This document shows, piece by piece, positions 12,370 through 32,000 of a stretch of 32,000 nt of DNA. The translations under genes were made by a program, and so were the position numbers. Source of the DNA: Nitrosarchaeum sp. (GTDB lineage Archaea > Thermoproteota > Nitrososphaeria > Nitrososphaerales > Nitrosopumilaceae); NCBI GenBank assembly GCA_021414105.1, contig JAIOPB010000059.1, positions 41,761 through 73,760 of the forward strand, given 5' to 3'. The notes under the pieces are model-generated. The model saw only the letters and a program-made list of their open reading frames with translations, was not told the origin of the DNA and searched no databases. Within the stretch, counting starts at the first letter, position 1. Each line of letters opens with the position of its first letter.

Positions 12370-12945
12370 ATGGAATCTATTCAATATGAAATTAGACAAA
12401 TTTTTGGATTTTTATTTATCTGTGTAGCAATTGCTGTGACAATAGCGTCAGTTACAAGTGAAATTTTGTTCTTAAATCATTTACCAACTTATTTGCATGG
12501 GTTTGTTTGGCTTGGAACATTTGGTATGATTTTTGGTTTTTATTTTTTGTATTTTAAAGAAAAAATCCCACTAATACGAAATCGCATGAAAAATAGTCTT
12601 TCTTGGCCATTATATGTCAAAATAGTAAATGGTTGTTGTTGGGCATTACCATTTATTCTGATCGCAATTTTTCCACAATATTTTCAGTATCTAATTTTAT
12701 TAGGAATAGGATTGGGAAATTCTTCAACATATGTTTTCATGAAACTTTTTAGCCATCAAAACAATAAAGAACAGATTTTAGTAGGTTTAATCGCCTTATT
12801 GGCAATTCCAATAGCTATAGAAATTGATACATCGATATTTGTATCTCATCAGGATATTGCCGTGTTGTTATCTAGACTTTTAATTTCAATTTCATATGCG
12901 ATAGGTGGTACATATGCTCTATTTTCAAAAATTGAAATACAATAA
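12370..12945 (+). CDS. Hypothetical polytopic membrane protein (about 5-6 predicted TM helices)
   Basis: 191 aa of strongly hydrophobic segments with no motif I recognise. A TATA-like ATAAATTATA (12342-12351) lies about 24 nt upstream of the ATG. Confidence 0.6.
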   Translation: MESIQYEIRQIFGFLFICVAIAVTIASVTSEILFLNHLPTYLHGFVWLGTFGMIFGFYFLYFKEKIPLIRNRMKNSLSWPLYVKIVNGCCWALPFILIAIFPQYFQYLILLGIGLGNSSTYVFMKLFSHQNNKEQILVGLIALLAIPIAIEIDTSIFVSHQDIAVLLSRLLISISYAIGGTYALFSKIEIQ

Positions 12946-13107: not shown

Positions 13108-13575
13108 GTGTTATCAAAGAGAACTATTATTGGAATTATTGTAGGTAGTGCTATTATTGGCATTGGAGTATATTCTTTAATTTCTGATATTGGATTGCAA
13201 ACAATACAAGTAAATGAAACATTTGCAGTAGGCGAATCCACTTCATATCAAATTAACGCAAATGAACATGCAACACAGCATATGAAAATTACAGGAGACA
13301 AATTTGATCTTAAATTATCTAGTCCTGGTGATGGTCTTCAAATACCAAAAACATCTCATACTAAAGAAGTCACTTTGGACTGGACTCATCTAAAAGACGG
13401 TATAACTGTGATAAATCTTCAAAATACTGGCTCTTCTGAATTAAAAGTAGAGGCAACATTGGAAGTAACATCTGATCCTATTTTGTTTCCATTTCATATG
13501 ATGGTCATTATTTCAGGTATGATAATTATTGGATTTAGTATGGGCTTTACTCTAAGAAAGCCAAAAGGATTCTAG
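13108..13575 (+). CDS. Hypothetical surface-exposed protein with N-terminal signal/anchor helix and C-terminal TM helix plus basic tail
   Basis: 155 aa with a GTG start. It has an N-terminal IIGIIVGSAIIGIGVY helix, a beta-rich middle and a C-terminal FPFHMMVIISGMIIIGFSMGFTLRKPKGF. A/T-rich element 13074-13085 lies upstream. Confidence 0.55.
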   Translation: MLSKRTIIGIIVGSAIIGIGVYSLISDIGLQTIQVNETFAVGESTSYQINANEHATQHMKITGDKFDLKLSSPGDGLQIPKTSHTKEVTLDWTHLKDGITVINLQNTGSSELKVEATLEVTSDPILFPFHMMVIISGMIIIGFSMGFTLRKPKGF

Positions 13576-27894: not shown

Positions 27895-28694
27895 CTCTTA
27901 CAAAAAGAATAATTCCATGCCTTGATGTAAAAAATGGACGAGTAGTAAAGGGTCTACATTTTGAATCAATTAAAGATGCAGGAGACCCTGTAGAACTGGC
28001 TGAAAAATATAGTAATGAAGGTGCAGATGAACTTGTTTTTTTGGATATTACTGCATCTGATGAACAAAGAAAAACAATCAAGGATTTGGTTAGAAAAGTT
28101 GCAACAGTAATTGACATTCCATTTACAGTTGGTGGTGGTGTAAAATCATTGGAAGATGCAAGAAATATTTTACTTAATGGTGCTGACAAAGTAGGAATCA
28201 ACACAGGTGCAATAAAAAATCCTCAAGTTATTACTGAACTAATGGAATTATTTGGAAGACAATGTATTGTAATTGCAATTGATGCGAAAAGGAATTTTGA
28301 TATTCAAAAAGACAAAAACATTTTTTCTGAGAATGGAAAACAATTCTGGTTTGAAGTCTTCATTTATGGTGGAAAAGAAGCAACTGGCATTGATGTCATT
28401 GAATGGGCAAAAAAAGCTGAAAAACTGGGTGCAGGAGAAATACTTCTCACCAGCATTGATAAAGATGGTACAAAAGATGGATATGATATTTTATTAAATA
28501 AAGAAATTGCTAATTCTGTATCTATTCCAGTTATTGCATCTGGTGGATGTGGCAAACCCGATGATATGGTTGATGTCTTTAAGAAATCAAACGTTGATGC
28601 TGCTCTGGCAGCTTCTATATTTCACTATCAAACTCATGGTGTGAATGGAGTAAAGATGTATCTTAAAGACAAACAAATTCCTGTAAGATTATAA
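27891..28694 (+). CDS. hisF: Imidazole glycerol phosphate synthase, cyclase subunit
   Basis: [22 protein letters not shown] and ASGGCG motifs. ATGA overlap with hisA. Confidence 0.97.
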
Positions 28695-28717
28695 GCTATA
28701 CTTTGTGATTTAAAATA

Positions 28718-29047
28718 ATGAAAAAATCAATCGCTGATATTGATTTTGCAAAAAGTGACGGACTTGTTCCAGTAATTGTTCAAGACGCAAATACAAAAGA
28801 TGTGTTAACCCTAGCTTACTCTAACAAAGAATCACTTGAATTAACTAAAAAAACTGGTAACTCTTGGTTTTGGAGTCGTTCTAGAAACAAACTTTGGATG
28901 AAAGGTGAAGAATCTGGTAACACACAAAAAGTAAAAGAAATTCTTGTTGATTGTGATTCTGATGCAATTATTTATCTTGTAGAACCATCAGGACCAGCTT
29001 GTCATACTGGCGAGAAAGTTTGCTTTCATAATAACTTGGACAAATAA
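28718..29047 (+). CDS. hisI: Phosphoribosyl-AMP cyclohydrolase (monofunctional, no HisE domain)
   Basis: 109 aa with [31 protein letters not shown] and [12 protein letters not shown]. Confidence 0.93.
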
Positions 29048-29048
29048 T

Positions 29049-29621
29049 CTAACAAACAGGTTCGATATCTGTTCCTGGAACAACATCTTTTGTTATCTCA
29101 AAATTTAGATTTGTATAATCTGTCCCTCTGAAAACCATTACCCACTTTCCTGTTATGTCATCAACTGAACATATTCCTCTAATTTTTGAAATTTGAGGAT
29201 TTAGATAATAATTGAATACTGGTTTTGTAGCTCCATCAAATGGAATGGTCAAATATACTGAGTAATGTGTATCATTTAGTGGTCTCATAACTGCAATCTG
29301 ACCTTTTTCGTTTGCATGCAATCCGTTCATTATTAGGAAAATCTTCTCACCTATGGCATATTGGCTTCGATCAATTTGAAACGGTCCTGAGCTAATCCAC
29401 TCTCTTTCTTTTGGTGAATACTCATTTTCCAAATTAATTTTTTCAATTTCATTTAATTTTTCTTGAATCTTTGTATTCTCCGTTTCTGGTTTTACTTCCT
29501 TATCTAATGTATCTTCAACTTCTATCACATCTGATTTCGTACTAGATATCAAAACTACAGCTAAAATAATTACAAAAATACTGACTCCTACTGCAATACC
29601 TATGCCCAGTCCTTTTTTCAT
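29049..29621 (-). CDS. Hypothetical membrane-anchored or secreted protein
   Basis: 190 aa with an N-terminal KKGLGIGIAVGVSIFVIILAVVLI helix, an acidic/lysine-rich linker and a C-terminal domain of about 120 aa containing two Cys. I recognised no family. Confidence 0.55.
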   Translation of the reverse strand: MKKGLGIGIAVGVSIFVIILAVVLISSTKSDVIEVEDTLDKEVKPETENTKIQEKLNEIEKINLENEYSPKEREWISSGPFQIDRSQYAIGEKIFLIMNGLHANEKGQIAVMRPLNDTHYSVYLTIPFDGATKPVFNYYLNPQISKIRGICSVDDITGKWVMVFRGTDYTNLNFEITKDVVPGTDIEPVC

Positions 29622-29666
29622 GTATTTTATTTTCTAAAAATATCTAAAAACCTTACTCATAATTGG

Positions 29667-29689
29667 AAAATCTATAAAACATAGATTTT
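29667..29689. repeat. Perfect 9-bp inverted repeat AAAATCTAT-(AAAAC)-ATAGATTTT in a divergent promoter region
   Basis: Read directly from the sequence: arms at 29667-29675 and 29681-29689, with a 5-nt spacer. Confidence 0.9.
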
Positions 29690-29834
29690 TTCTAAATTTT
29701 TCTTCAAACTATGCCTCTACAATTTTTTTATAAATATTAGATAATTTTCATTATATTTTTTAGTCAGTAAAGTTAAGTAATAGTTAACTTGATATTAGGA
29801 TTTTTTATGTACAGTCTGAAAGGAGAAACTAATC

Positions 29835-31049
29835 TTGGCTAGAACATCACTACAATGCAGAGAATGTAAAAAAGAATATGACACTGCTTTCAAGTATATC
29901 TGCGATGACTGTTTTGGACCTCTTGATGTAAAATATGACTTTCCCACAATTGCCAAGAATACATTTACAAACCGTGAACACACCTATTGGAGATATTTTG
30001 AATTATTGCCAATAGAAAACAAATCCAATATTGTCAGTATTGGTGCAGGAATGACACCTCTTATCAAAGCTGATAATCTTGGAAAAAAATTAGGATTAAA
30101 CAATCTTTACATCAAAAATGATTCTGTAAACCCGACATTTTCATTTAAAGACAGACCAGCAGGTGTTGCAATATCAAAGGCAAAGGAATTTGGATTATCT
30201 GCAGTAGGTTGTGCATCTACTGGCAATTTAGCATCTGCAACTGCAGCACATGCAGCTAAAGCTGGATTGCCATGTCATGTATTTGCACCAAGTAACATTG
30301 AGATGGCAAAAATCGCACAGGCATTATCATACGGCGCAAATTACATTGCAGTAGATGGAACATATGATGATGCAAATAGAATAGCTGCACAGATTGGTGA
30401 TAGTAAAGGAATTGGAATTGTAAATATTAACATGCGTTCTCATTATGTAGAAGGCTCCAAAACACTTGCATACGAAGTTGCAGAACAACTTGACTGGCAA
30501 GTTCCTGATCAACTTATAGTTCCTGTAGGAAGTGGCGCAATGCTAAATGCAATTTGCAAAGGATTTGAAGAATTACAAACAGTTTCATTATTAAATAATG
30601 TTTCAAATATGCACATGATAGCAGCACAACCACATGGATGCGCACCTATAGTTGATGCATTTAAGAAAAACAGCAAAGAAGTGATTCCAGTGGAGCATCC
30701 TGATACCATTGCAAAGAGTTTGGCAATAGGTGATCCCGGAGATGGTAGATATGTACTAAAAAGATTAGCACAATACAATGGATTTGCAGAAGAATGCAAC
30801 AATAAAGAAATTTTAGATGCAATATTGCTTTTGGCAAAAACTGAAGGAATATTCACAGAGCCTGCAGGCGGTGTCTCTGTTGCTGTACTTCAAAAGATGG
30901 TAGAGCAGGGAAAAATTGACAAAAATGACTCTGTAGTGTGCTATGTTACTGGAAATGGATTAAAAGCAACTGAGGCAATAATGGAAATTTTGCCAAAACC
31001 AAAAGTAATGAAGGCAAATATCAAAGAAATATCGGCGGTAGTAAACTAG
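29835..31049 (+). CDS. thrC: Threonine synthase family PLP enzyme with N-terminal zinc ribbon
   Basis: 404 aa with CRECKKEY...CDDCFGPLD, the PLP-lysine motif NPTFSFKDRPAG, GCASTGN, and the fold-type II C-terminal half. A TTG start is forced by the zinc ribbon at residue 8, and AAAGGAG lies 9 nt upstream. The gene symbol reflects the family only (see findings). Confidence 0.85.
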   Translation: MARTSLQCRECKKEYDTAFKYICDDCFGPLDVKYDFPTIAKNTFTNREHTYWRYFELLPIENKSNIVSIGAGMTPLIKADNLGKKLGLNNLYIKNDSVNPTFSFKDRPAGVAISKAKEFGLSAVGCASTGNLASATAAHAAKAGLPCHVFAPSNIEMAKIAQALSYGANYIAVDGTYDDANRIAAQIGDSKGIGIVNINMRSHYVEGSKTLAYEVAEQLDWQVPDQLIVPVGSGAMLNAICKGFEELQTVSLLNNVSNMHMIAAQPHGCAPIVDAFKKNSKEVIPVEHPDTIAKSLAIGDPGDGRYVLKRLAQYNGFAEECNNKEILDAILLLAKTEGIFTEPAGGVSVAVLQKMVEQGKIDKNDSVVCYVTGNGLKATEAIMEILPKPKVMKANIKEISAVVN

Positions 31050-31050
31050 A

Positions 31051-32000
31051 ATGGCAAACATCACATTTACAATTCCATCAGTACTAAATCAAGGAGGTGG
31101 AGAGAAAAAAACAGAGATCTCAGCTGATTCTCTAACTAGTGCGTTTACAAAAATATCTGAAATTATGGGTGATGACTTTAAGAGACGAGTCTTAGAAGGC
31201 AATGGAACCCCACGCTCTTTGATTAATATTTACATTAATGGAAAAAATGCAAAATTCTCTGATGGAATGAACACTACTCTAAATGATGGAGATGAGGTGT
31301 ATATTCTACCTGCAGTAGCTGGAGGCTCTGAACTGTCTGCAAAAGAACTAGATAGATTTTCAAGACAAGTAATGCTAGAAGAAATTGGCTATACTGGGCA
31401 ACTAAAACTAAAAAATTCTAAAGTGTGTGTTGTTGGCACTGGTGGTCTGGGAAATCCGATTATATCCAGATTAGCTGCAATGGGTGTTGGTACTTTACGA
31501 ATTGTTGATAGAGATGTAATAGAATTATCCAATTTACATCGTCAAACAATGTTTGATGAATCAGATGTTGGCCAAGTAAAAGTAGAAGTTGCTGCAAAAA
31601 AATTAAAAAAATTAAATTCTGATTGTAAAATAGAAGCCTTGGCTATTTCAGTAAATGATTACACTGCACTTGAAGTGATTGAAGGATGTGATGTTGTAAT
31701 TGATGCACTTGATAGTGTTAATGCAAGATATGCACTAAACAAAGCATGTGTTAAATTTGGAATTCCATTTGTTACCGGTGCTGCAGTTGGAGTATCAGGA
31801 CAAGCATTTACAGTTCTGCCAAAAGAATCTGCATGCTATTATTGCATGTTTCCTGAACTAAACGAAGATACAATGCCGACTTGCAGCATTGAAGGAGTGC
31901 ATCCATCAATACTTTCTATTGTTGGAGGAATTGAAGTATCAGAAGCTGTTAAAATTATCACTGGAAAAAAACCTAGTCTATCCCAAAGAATTCTTCACAT
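31051..32000 (+). CDS. In-frame fusion of a CysO/MoaD-like diglycine beta-grasp domain (aa 1-92) to a MoeB/ThiF/UBA-type E1 adenylyltransferase; 3' end beyond the window
   Basis: I translated this by hand. ATG 31051 opens 316 complete codons with no stop before the window end, which is why it is missing from the ORF track. Residues 1-92 end DGDEVYILPAVAGG. The E1 motifs LDRFSRQ, VVGTGGLGN, IVDRD, LSNLHRQ and CYYC follow. Confidence 0.85.
   Translation, partial: MANITFTIPSVLNQGGGEKKTEISADSLTSAFTKISEIMGDDFKRRVLEGNGTPRSLINIYINGKNAKFSDGMNTTLNDGDEVYILPAVAGGSELSAKELDRFSRQVMLEEIGYTGQLKLKNSKVCVVGTGGLGNPIISRLAAMGVGTLRIVDRDVIELSNLHRQTMFDESDVGQVKVEVAAKKLKKLNSDCKIEALAISVNDYTALEVIEGCDVVIDALDSVNARYALNKACVKFGIPFVTGAAVGVSGQAFTVLPKESACYYCMFPELNEDTMPTCSIEGVHPSILSIVGGIEVSEAVKIITGKKPSLSQRILH

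Follow-up and report, generated by a model that had tools for sequence, protein, structure and literature searches.

The Ubl-E1-TBP architecture, in which a ubiquitin-like (Ubl) domain, an activating enzyme (E1) and a domain resembling the TATA-binding protein (TBP) are joined in one polypeptide, was listed for the Thaumarchaeota by Makarova & Koonin 2010 (Archaea 2010:710303), who gave it one sentence and called it a 'telling fusion'. Their supplementary tables contain orthologues of 443 amino acids (aa) in Nitrosopumilus maritimus and 458 aa in Cenarchaeum symbiosum, each beside an arCOG01434 threonine synthase. ThiS-ThiF fusions in bacteria were described by Iyer, Burroughs & Aravind 2006, who also proposed the release of fused ThiS/MoaD carriers by JAB proteases. 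Both the Ubl-E1 architecture and the JAB-release hypothesis are already in print; the fusion is not a discovery, and as a new architecture it does not matter. Here we analyse a member of this family from Nitrosarchaeum sp. (assembly GCA_021414105.1), encoded in a stretch of 32,000 nucleotides (nt) of contig JAIOPB010000059.1 (positions 41,761-73,760, forward strand; hereafter the window), in which a sulfur-carrier domain and its own E1 form one continuous frame, so that the Gly-Gly (GG) pair of the carrier lies inside a peptide bond. The gene belongs to the same protein family as the published thaumarchaeal proteins (arCOG00536/arCOG01676), all three parts are present, the TBP-like one in full-length orthologues of 91-97% identity, and nothing structural differs; its ThrC neighbour, its processing and its function are not discussed in the 2010 account. 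A literature search found no experimental test of the Ubl-E1-TBP architecture or of its JAB release.

Eukaryotic ubiquitin precursors (polyubiquitin and ubiquitin-ribosomal protein fusions) are likewise made with the GG in a peptide bond, which a protease exposes before activation by the E1. In the thaumarchaeal family, by contrast, the partner is the E1 itself, the protease is likely a JAMM and not a cysteine deubiquitinase, and the product would be a sulfur carrier; nothing points to protein conjugation. Mycobacterium tuberculosis MoaX is a linear fusion of MoaD and MoaE. Such fusions resemble the window gene in that a partner enzyme continues the frame behind the carrier GG, where a cut is needed before the carrier can work. 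In Deinococcus radiodurans the fusion DR2607 is cut by DR0402, a JAMM encoded elsewhere, giving a C-terminal Gly, and HvJAMM1 also cleaves linear fusions (PMC8832034). The partner there, however, is the sulfur-accepting synthase subunit MoaE and not an E1, and the pathway is that of molybdopterin, whose genes are absent from these archaea. The bacterial ThiS-ThiF fusions of delta/epsilon-proteobacteria and Firmicutes share the N-terminal Ubl and the ThiF-type adenylating domain; their fused domain was described as distinct from ThiS (Iyer et al. 2006), whereas for Ubl-E1-TBP no solo carrier is tabulated and the context is amino-acid synthesis.

In the CysM/CysO/Mec+/MoeZ system of M. tuberculosis, whose CysO is the best solved relative of the window carrier, the carrier thiocarboxylate supplies a fold-type II pyridoxal phosphate (PLP) enzyme, and the bond behind the GG is hydrolysed by a JAMM, which is the same logic as that considered here. 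The CysO-type product first forms as a carrier-amino-acid adduct after the GG and is hydrolysed by the JAMM, as is established for Mec+; a GG-X peptidase is therefore already part of the cycle. CysO-MoeZ fusions with CysM and JAB in the operon exist in bacteria, whereas at the window locus the partner belongs to the ThrC family and not to CysM, the operon contains no JAB and there is no rhodanese. The MetM/MetO system of Streptomyces albulus is a thiocarboxylate route to homocysteine (Hasebe et al. 2024, as summarised in GapMind 2026 and PMC12172450), which needs an E1 and a JAMM (Mec) according to the GapMind 2026 summary. Going by these summaries, the likeness lies in a ThrC homologue encoded directly beside a MoaD/CysO-type carrier gene; furthermore, the window enzyme groups with an actinomycete homologue that is preceded by an S-adenosylmethionine (SAM) riboswitch and followed by a free carrier ending in AVAGG. 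Unlike in MetM/MetO, the window carrier is fused to the E1 and not free, the E1 of the window family carries a TBP-like domain instead of the MoeZ rhodanese, no riboswitch is present, the host is an archaeon, and the activity is a predicted one.

The fusion gene lies on the forward strand and runs through 316 stop-free codons from the ATG at 31051 to the window end. Its beta-grasp sulfur-carrier (Ubl) domain (31051-31326, residues 1-92), which is CysO/MoaD/MetO-like, ends with the codons GGA GGC (31321-31326, codons 91-92), the putative activation site, after which cleavage is predicted. The next residues are the linker SELSAKELD (31327-31353, residues 93-101, 9 residues) and RFSRQ (31354-31368), the arginine motif with which the MoeB/ThiF-type E1 adenylation domain begins (31354-32000, residues 102-316, cut by the window end). 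The domain border coincides with the GG: the Pfam ThiS match stops at residue 92, the last profile position (76 of 76), the NCBIfam matches to moaD_arch (profile 88/88) and SAMP1 (profile 91/91) stop at the same residue, and the Pfam ThiF match begins at residue 103. The domain thus has the beta-grasp fold and terminal GG of ThiS/MoaD/CysO carriers, but the GG is not the C-terminus of the gene product, as at least 224 further codons follow in the window and the orthologues have about 445 aa. Between the GG and RFSRQ of the window gene there is no in-frame ATG, GTG or TTG; the sole conceivable start is a CTG at codon 95, and the first ATG past the GG is codon 108, 3' of the arginine motif. A separately initiated E1 was considered and rejected, because no start codon precedes the arginine motif. 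The first-pass annotation of this DNA had described the single frame, the GG running into the E1 motif and the lack of ATG, GTG or TTG between them, and all three observations were borne out. No ORF (open reading frame) in the window ends with GG and a stop.

The fused state is conserved throughout the family. Among 5.8 billion proteins searched, more than 120 clusters (91-97% identity) from Nitrosarchaeum and Nitrosopumilus were matched, all of 438-450 aa and all with ThiS and ThiF. A scan of genome contigs, anchored on the protein encoded upstream of the fusion (ThrC-like, see below), gave 80 Nitrosopumilaceae loci among its listed matches, complete chromosomes included, with Nitrosarchaeum sp. 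WB-IL-22 at the top (99% identity at the ThrC-like gene). The first-pass annotation had proposed to look in relatives for a stop after the GG. None was found: 76 of the 80 loci read through the GG into the E1, the remaining four being too short to tell, and in all 76 informative loci ...LPAVAGG runs directly into S[ED]ELSxKELD[RK][FY]SRQ. No split carrier/E1 arrangement occurs among the 80 loci listed. G91 and G92 are invariant in 76/76, Ser directly follows the GG in 75/76, and the linker is conserved within the family. When 65 loci were each compared with the window, the ratio of nonsynonymous to synonymous substitution rates (dN/dS) was 0.087 for the carrier domain, 0.053 for the linker and 0.075 for the E1; the codons of G91 and G92 show zero nonsynonymous change with all four Gly codons in use, synonymous change being saturated.

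More distant fusions were collected by a profile-free scan of 1.84 billion representatives, from which 19 sequences were aligned. The fused forms at 26-59% identity carry three kinds of C-terminus, namely a TBP-like domain, a rhodanese, or none. G91 and G92 are invariant in all 19, whereas the stretch from the GG to R[YF]xRQ varies in sequence and measures 6 to about 30 residues, and the residue after the GG is S, D, A, G, K, E or H. As judged from the alignment, an invariant GG with a variable stretch behind it is consistent with an activation site that has been kept and a spacer that is dispensable, and a GG that is fixed while the linker varies argues against a conserved self-cleaving nucleophile.

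Several of the loci have peculiarities of their own (loci and proteins from our searches are numbered L and P, respectively). At L021 the fusion ORF ends early, 215 residues after the stop that precedes it, probably through a frameshift or an error of assembly. L089 has an acidic insertion in the linker after the GG (SNSKEEEEELSPKELD), so the spacer tolerates a change of length even inside the family. L042 and L044 both lie on CBDFGF010000007.1, a contig of a Nitrosopumilus metagenome-assembled genome (MAG), about 820 kb apart; these two ThrC-like and fusion gene pairs, each about 91% identical to the window, represent either a true duplication or a chimeric assembly. Pairs 90-93% identical to the Nitrosopumilus type were also found in L019 and L074 (titled Nitrosomonas sp. 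MAGs) and L022 (a Robiginitomaculum sp. MAG), and these contigs are most likely mis-binned archaeal sequence.

The carrier domain scores 35.4 bits against Pfam ThiS (cutoff 22.5). Its best solved relative, M. tuberculosis CysO (3dwg_C, E 2.5e-11), is matched end to end over residues 3-92, and the top carrier matches, CysO and the BexX partner, both serve the insertion of sulfur into small molecules. SAMP1 (NF041918) gives 42.2-42.7 bits, below its cutoff of 60, and the moaD_arch match is also below cutoff. In the full-length AlphaFold2 model (predicted TM-score 0.56) residues 1-90 form a confident mixed strand/helix domain, with block-mean confidence (pLDDT) of 76-94, and residues 90-95, which include the GG, are disordered (pLDDT <50).

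The E1 part matches Pfam ThiF with E 9e-71, ThiF (1zfn) with E 2e-46 and MoeB (1jw9) with E 9e-42; its model superposes on ThiF/MoeB with Foldseek TM-scores of 0.92-0.95, normalised to the targets. UbaA (NF047750) gives 195 bits, below its cutoff of 450. The window contains the RFSRQ motif, the nucleotide-binding GTGGLG (31435-31452) and the first zinc CxxC (31834-31845, C262/C265), all on the forward strand. The remainder of the protein was taken from P0001, a full-length orthologue of 446 aa that is 97% identical to the window protein and that adds the second zinc CxxC (C335/C338) and about 100 C-terminal residues without Pfam match. Among the 19 homologues R102, G129/G131/G134, N161, Q165, K177, D221, C262, C265 and C338 are invariant, and R164 and C335 are at least 90% conserved; the enzyme thus retains the arginine finger, GxGxxG, the catalytic Asp/Lys/Asn and the zinc cysteines. 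The first-pass annotation had suggested looking for a rhodanese or JAB domain in the rest of the gene, and P0001 turned out to have a TBP-like domain instead, with no rhodanese match over its full length. The tail is modelled by AlphaFold with pLDDT 87.6 as beta-alpha-beta4-alpha, and in the PDB it best matches TATA-binding proteins of archaea and eukaryotes; the E-values are weak (7e-3 upward), but the hits agree with one another. According to this model, the TBP-like domain sits where MoeZ/Uba4-type enzymes carry a rhodanese, which is present in the related fusions P0166, P0177 and P0201. Between the TBP-like domain and the second zinc CxxC lies C357 of P0001 (in ELCGR). All 24 E1-TBP proteins compared, fused and unfused, have this cysteine, and in most rhodanese-type fusions an FCG aligns with its position; C357 may be a sulfur-relay residue.

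Relatives of the E1-TBP part show further variation. P0121 (L002:6001-7800; 599 aa, 59% identical) has an extension of about 150 residues past the TBP-like domain where the only Pfam matches are weak or faint ones to TPR families. Unfused E1-TBP relatives were found at L004, L007/L008, L091 and L092, with no small carrier ORF upstream. The one at L004:2703-3785, 48% identical, lies on a 4.7 kb TARA metagenome scaffold whose other genes lack Pfam matches; the contig might be a mobile element or virus of marine Thaumarchaeota. Its longest ORF starts with MAGGQGM just 5' of the RYSRQ motif, conceivably a vestige of a carrier domain that was lost.

Function is best indicated by a gene of which the first-pass annotation had made no use, the one directly upstream of the fusion (29835-31049, forward strand), which encodes a ThrC-family PLP enzyme of 404 aa, a candidate MetM-like partner of the carrier. 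Its stop codon TAG (31047-31049) is separated by 1 nt from the fusion gene's ATG, and the two genes are translationally coupled. The enzyme matches Pfam PALP (E 9e-76) and is above cutoff for NCBIfam thrC and PRK08197; cysKM gives 46.9 bits against a cutoff of 344, so it does not belong to the CysM/CysK cysteine synthase family. Its N-terminus contains a zinc ribbon (29856-29912; CxxC at 29856-29867 and 29901-29912), which is conserved in L002, L003 and the Nonomuraea homologue described below and is missing from canonical ThrC structures, where matches begin at query residue 52-54. The ThrC-like gene adjoins the fusion gene in L001, L002, L003, L005, L097 and L098, and the pair is kept in lineages with fusion proteins sharing 59%, 54%, 42% and 38% identity with that of the window. 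The two genes overlap in L003 and L005, and in one lineage the ThrC-like gene is inverted yet still adjacent.

A tblastn search of the plasmid collection yielded 303 ThrC homologues, of which the best is that of Nonomuraea gerenzanensis (L093; 45% identity over residues 5-403). The Nonomuraea gene has a SAM riboswitch upstream (RF00162, 68.7 bits against a gathering score of 44.4), and 24 nt 3' of it a 91-residue ORF ends with ...IIPAVAGG and a stop, a free carrier that is 28% identical to the window carrier (E 2e-13). A SAM riboswitch is the mark of a methionine or SAM gene. The S. albulus metM gene reportedly carries one too (PMC12172450). The three thaumarchaeal-type ThrC-like enzymes are 45-47% identical to that of Nonomuraea and 32-39% identical to the other zinc-ribbon ThrC homologues, the Nonomuraea enzyme is 28-36% identical to the latter, and the window enzyme is 37-40% identical to solved canonical ThrCs. 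The GG-stop carrier of Nonomuraea indicates that the split state does exist, in an actinomycete metM/metO-type operon, and by sequence the thaumarchaeal pair looks like a metM/metO-type system with the carrier joined to the E1.

The Nonomuraea sequence (NZ_LT559118.1) is filed as a plasmid; at 11.85 Mb and with only 10 annotated features it is effectively a chromosome, and in this copy the metM/metO-type operon and its SAM riboswitch are unannotated. Zinc-ribbon ThrC homologues in Aliarcobacter, Haloterrigena and Chlorohelix have no annotated carrier neighbour. That of the Aliarcobacter cibarius plasmid pACIB (L094:4001-5200), a 36% identical 'threonine synthase', lies amid sulfonate, cysteine and sulfate transporter genes and ssuD, which suggests that it works in the metabolism of sulfur amino acids and not in threonine synthesis.

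The gene inventory of related genomes narrows the possible roles of the carrier. Table S1 of Makarova & Koonin 2010 gives for both N. maritimus and C. symbiosum 0 ThiS genes, 2 MoaD-family domains, 1 E1, which is that of the fusion, 0 molybdenum-cofactor genes, the Thi4 (non-ThiS) thiazole route and 2 JAB proteases. We read the two MoaD-family domains as the Cgi121 fusion mentioned in the text of that paper and the Ubl-E1 fusion. A role in molybdopterin or bacterial-type thiamine synthesis was rejected, because by the same table the genes for it are absent. In these two related species, an adenylation-competent E1 without a free substrate and JABs without a free Ubl would fit the release of a fused carrier.

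Related fusions occur in operons that point to sulfur insertion. In the operon of P0201, a bacterial Ubl-E1-rhodanese protein whose cluster includes a Gemmatimonadales MAG, genes for an Rrf2 regulator, a CysM-like PLP enzyme and a JAB protease, in this order, precede the fusion; the set equals the CysM/Mec+/CysO/MoeZ system of M. tuberculosis, except that CysO and MoeZ are joined. The operon of the distant fusion P0205 contains a GHMP kinase, a cysteine desulfurase family protein, a CysK/M-like enzyme and a JAB. The bacterial fusions with a JAB and a CysM-type PLP enzyme in the operon are those of the loci L009/L010 and L006. P0168, a Ubl-E1 fusion without C-terminal domain (L099:221-5601), is encoded between a NIL-ferredoxin and a SepCysS/aminotransferase-V-like protein, followed by SufC and SufBD. 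NIL-ferredoxin is of the type associated with homocysteine synthesis in methanogens, and L099 looks like another sulfur-relay cluster. The operons of P0201, P0205 and P0168 thus place fused carriers in sulfur-insertion clusters, twice together with a JAB.

The precursor consists of three parts, namely a CysO/MetO-type carrier (residues 1-92), a MoeB/ThiF-type E1 and, beyond the window, a TBP-like domain. We consider it somewhat more probable than the sum of its alternatives that this is a polyprotein cut by a JAMM, and that it feeds a thiocarboxylate to the ThrC-like enzyme for homocysteine synthesis. A cut after Gly92 would expose the Gly-Gly carboxylate, the likeliest agent being a JAMM/MPN+ metalloprotease encoded elsewhere in the genome. 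The E1 would then adenylate the freed carrier, a persulfide donor would convert it to the thiocarboxylate, and the ThrC-like PLP enzyme would use this on O-phosphohomoserine to form homocysteine, as in the Streptomyces MetM/MetO route, with the same peptidase releasing the carrier-homocysteine adduct in each cycle. Since the fused GG-X bond is of the kind that such a pathway must already cleave, fusion of the carrier would cost nothing extra. Among the three possibilities that the first-pass annotation had raised for the buried GG, namely a polyprotein cleaved after the GG, a cis role or a lost stop, the first, with a JAMM-type protease, is the best supported, if indirectly. Our confidence is higher for a retained carrier function that needs cleavage and lower for homocysteine as the product. 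The wider proposal, that ammonia-oxidising archaea make homocysteine and methionine by a route of the MetM/MetO kind, with an E1-carrier polyprotein, a JAMM encoded elsewhere and a TBP-like domain with an invariant Cys replacing the rhodanese, is tentative, and we give it slightly less than an even chance.

A number of points weigh against this explanation. The cut after Gly92 and the thiocarboxylate chemistry are deduced from gene content and conservation. No JAMM gene is present within 10 kb of the locus in Nitrosarchaeum AC2 or in the window, where the absence already noted in the first-pass annotation was upheld by a Pfam scan of the window ORFs, the his operon being covered through the annotation of the syntenic L001; a JAMM in this genome is presumed from the 2010 table for two related species. 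The MetM type of the window enzyme was assigned through the Nonomuraea homologue, itself identified by context, and not through the sequence of S. albulus MetM, and the enzyme passes the NCBI threonine synthase cutoffs (thrC, PRK08197). If the genome has no second ThrC, the enzyme must at least also make threonine; a literature search on methionine or threonine synthase genes of Nitrosopumilus found nothing usable. The cyanobacterial MetM-like ThrC is mainly a threonine synthase in vitro (PMC12172450). Lastly, no gene for a carrier or a ThrC adjoins the unfused E1-TBP relatives.

The linker is short and conserved within the family, and the Nitrosopumilaceae locus has no linked JAMM gene, as might be expected if the carrier were never released and served in cis as a docking, regulatory or pseudo-substrate domain, while the E1 activated another Ubl, for example the Cgi121-Ubl or a small unannotated carrier. 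Campylobacter-type ThiF has such an N-terminal Ubl-like domain in operons that also encode a solo ThiS (Iyer et al. 2006), and a second Ubl domain exists in the thaumarchaeal genomes (Makarova & Koonin 2010). We nevertheless regard this alternative as unlikely: the GG is invariant in every fusion examined while the next residue is free, which is expected of an activation site and not of a docking domain, the domain matches the working carrier CysO over its full length, the two tabulated thaumarchaeal genomes have no free ThiS/MoaD gene (Makarova & Koonin 2010), and bacterial fusions have a JAB in the operon.

It is also improbable that the carrier is released mainly for tRNA 2-thiolation and/or SAMP-like conjugation, as in SAMP2/UbaA and Urm1/Uba4, and that the neighbour is an ordinary threonine synthase. 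The adjacency of the two genes is kept at 38-59% identity, even after inversion of one of them, the closest relative of the ThrC-like enzyme outside its group is the SAM-riboswitch-controlled, carrier-linked gene of Nonomuraea, and the best carrier matches serve small-molecule sulfur insertion. This has to be set against an E1 that is the sole one tabulated in these genomes and the argument that tRNA modification is ancestral for archaeal Ubls (both from Makarova & Koonin 2010), as well as a ThrC-like protein above the NCBI thrC cutoffs and a carrier matched by the SAMP1 and moaD_arch models, though below cutoff. The tRNA or SAMP role and the homocysteine role are not mutually exclusive.

Cutting of the junction without a JAMM, either by self-processing at Gly-Ser through an N-to-O acyl shift or by another cellular protease, would agree with the Ser found after the GG in 75/76 Nitrosopumilaceae loci and with the lack of a linked protease gene, but is very unlikely in view of the operon-encoded JAB of bacterial fusions and of the seven different residues that follow the GG in distant fusions, which leave no conserved nucleophile. 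We know of no precedent for self-cleaving ThiS/MoaD fusions. A recent loss of the stop codon or a sequencing or assembly error, in whose favour nothing was found beyond the actinomycete homologue with its stop after the GG, which shows the split state elsewhere, is practically excluded and this part of the first-pass annotation is refuted, because the frame is kept (76/76 informative loci from different species and assemblies, complete chromosomes included, and more than 120 independent clusters), the GG codons change synonymously only and the low dN/dS indicates purifying selection on all parts, with orthologues already published for N. maritimus and C. symbiosum (Makarova & Koonin 2010).

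The surroundings of the locus were also inspected. Scans of window positions 28600-32000 with Rfam and for promoters and terminators gave nothing meaningful and no riboswitch. Divergent from the ThrC-like gene, at 29049-29621 on the reverse strand, lies a gene whose product of 190 aa has a membrane helix at its N-terminus and matches nothing in Pfam; it corresponds to arCOG08828, which is also recorded next to the orthologues of N. maritimus and C. symbiosum and is missing from the more distant L002. Elsewhere in the window, amid well-annotated housekeeping genes, two forward-strand ORFs of 191 and 155 aa (12370-12945 and 13108-13575) lack Pfam matches.

With no apparent free carrier, a single E1 and no molybdenum-cofactor pathway, the role of the fusion is a real gap in the metabolism of these archaea, and the MetM/MetO-type link is a concrete, testable proposal for methionine synthesis in globally important nitrifiers. 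The present analysis adds to the published architecture the link of the ThrC-like gene to the SAM-riboswitch operon of Nonomuraea and the bacterial Ubl-E1 fusions in CysM-type operons with JAB. In many genomes, the label 'threonine synthase' given to neighbours of carrier genes is probably incorrect or tells only part of the story. The locus offers a simple natural system for the maturation of a Ubl precursor joined to its own E1, and it bears on the origin of ubiquitin-precursor processing. If the proposal is true, a function would be assigned to the sole E1 of these genomes, and ammonia-oxidising archaea, among the most abundant microbes of ocean and soil, would possess an archaeal Ubl precursor fused to its activating enzyme.

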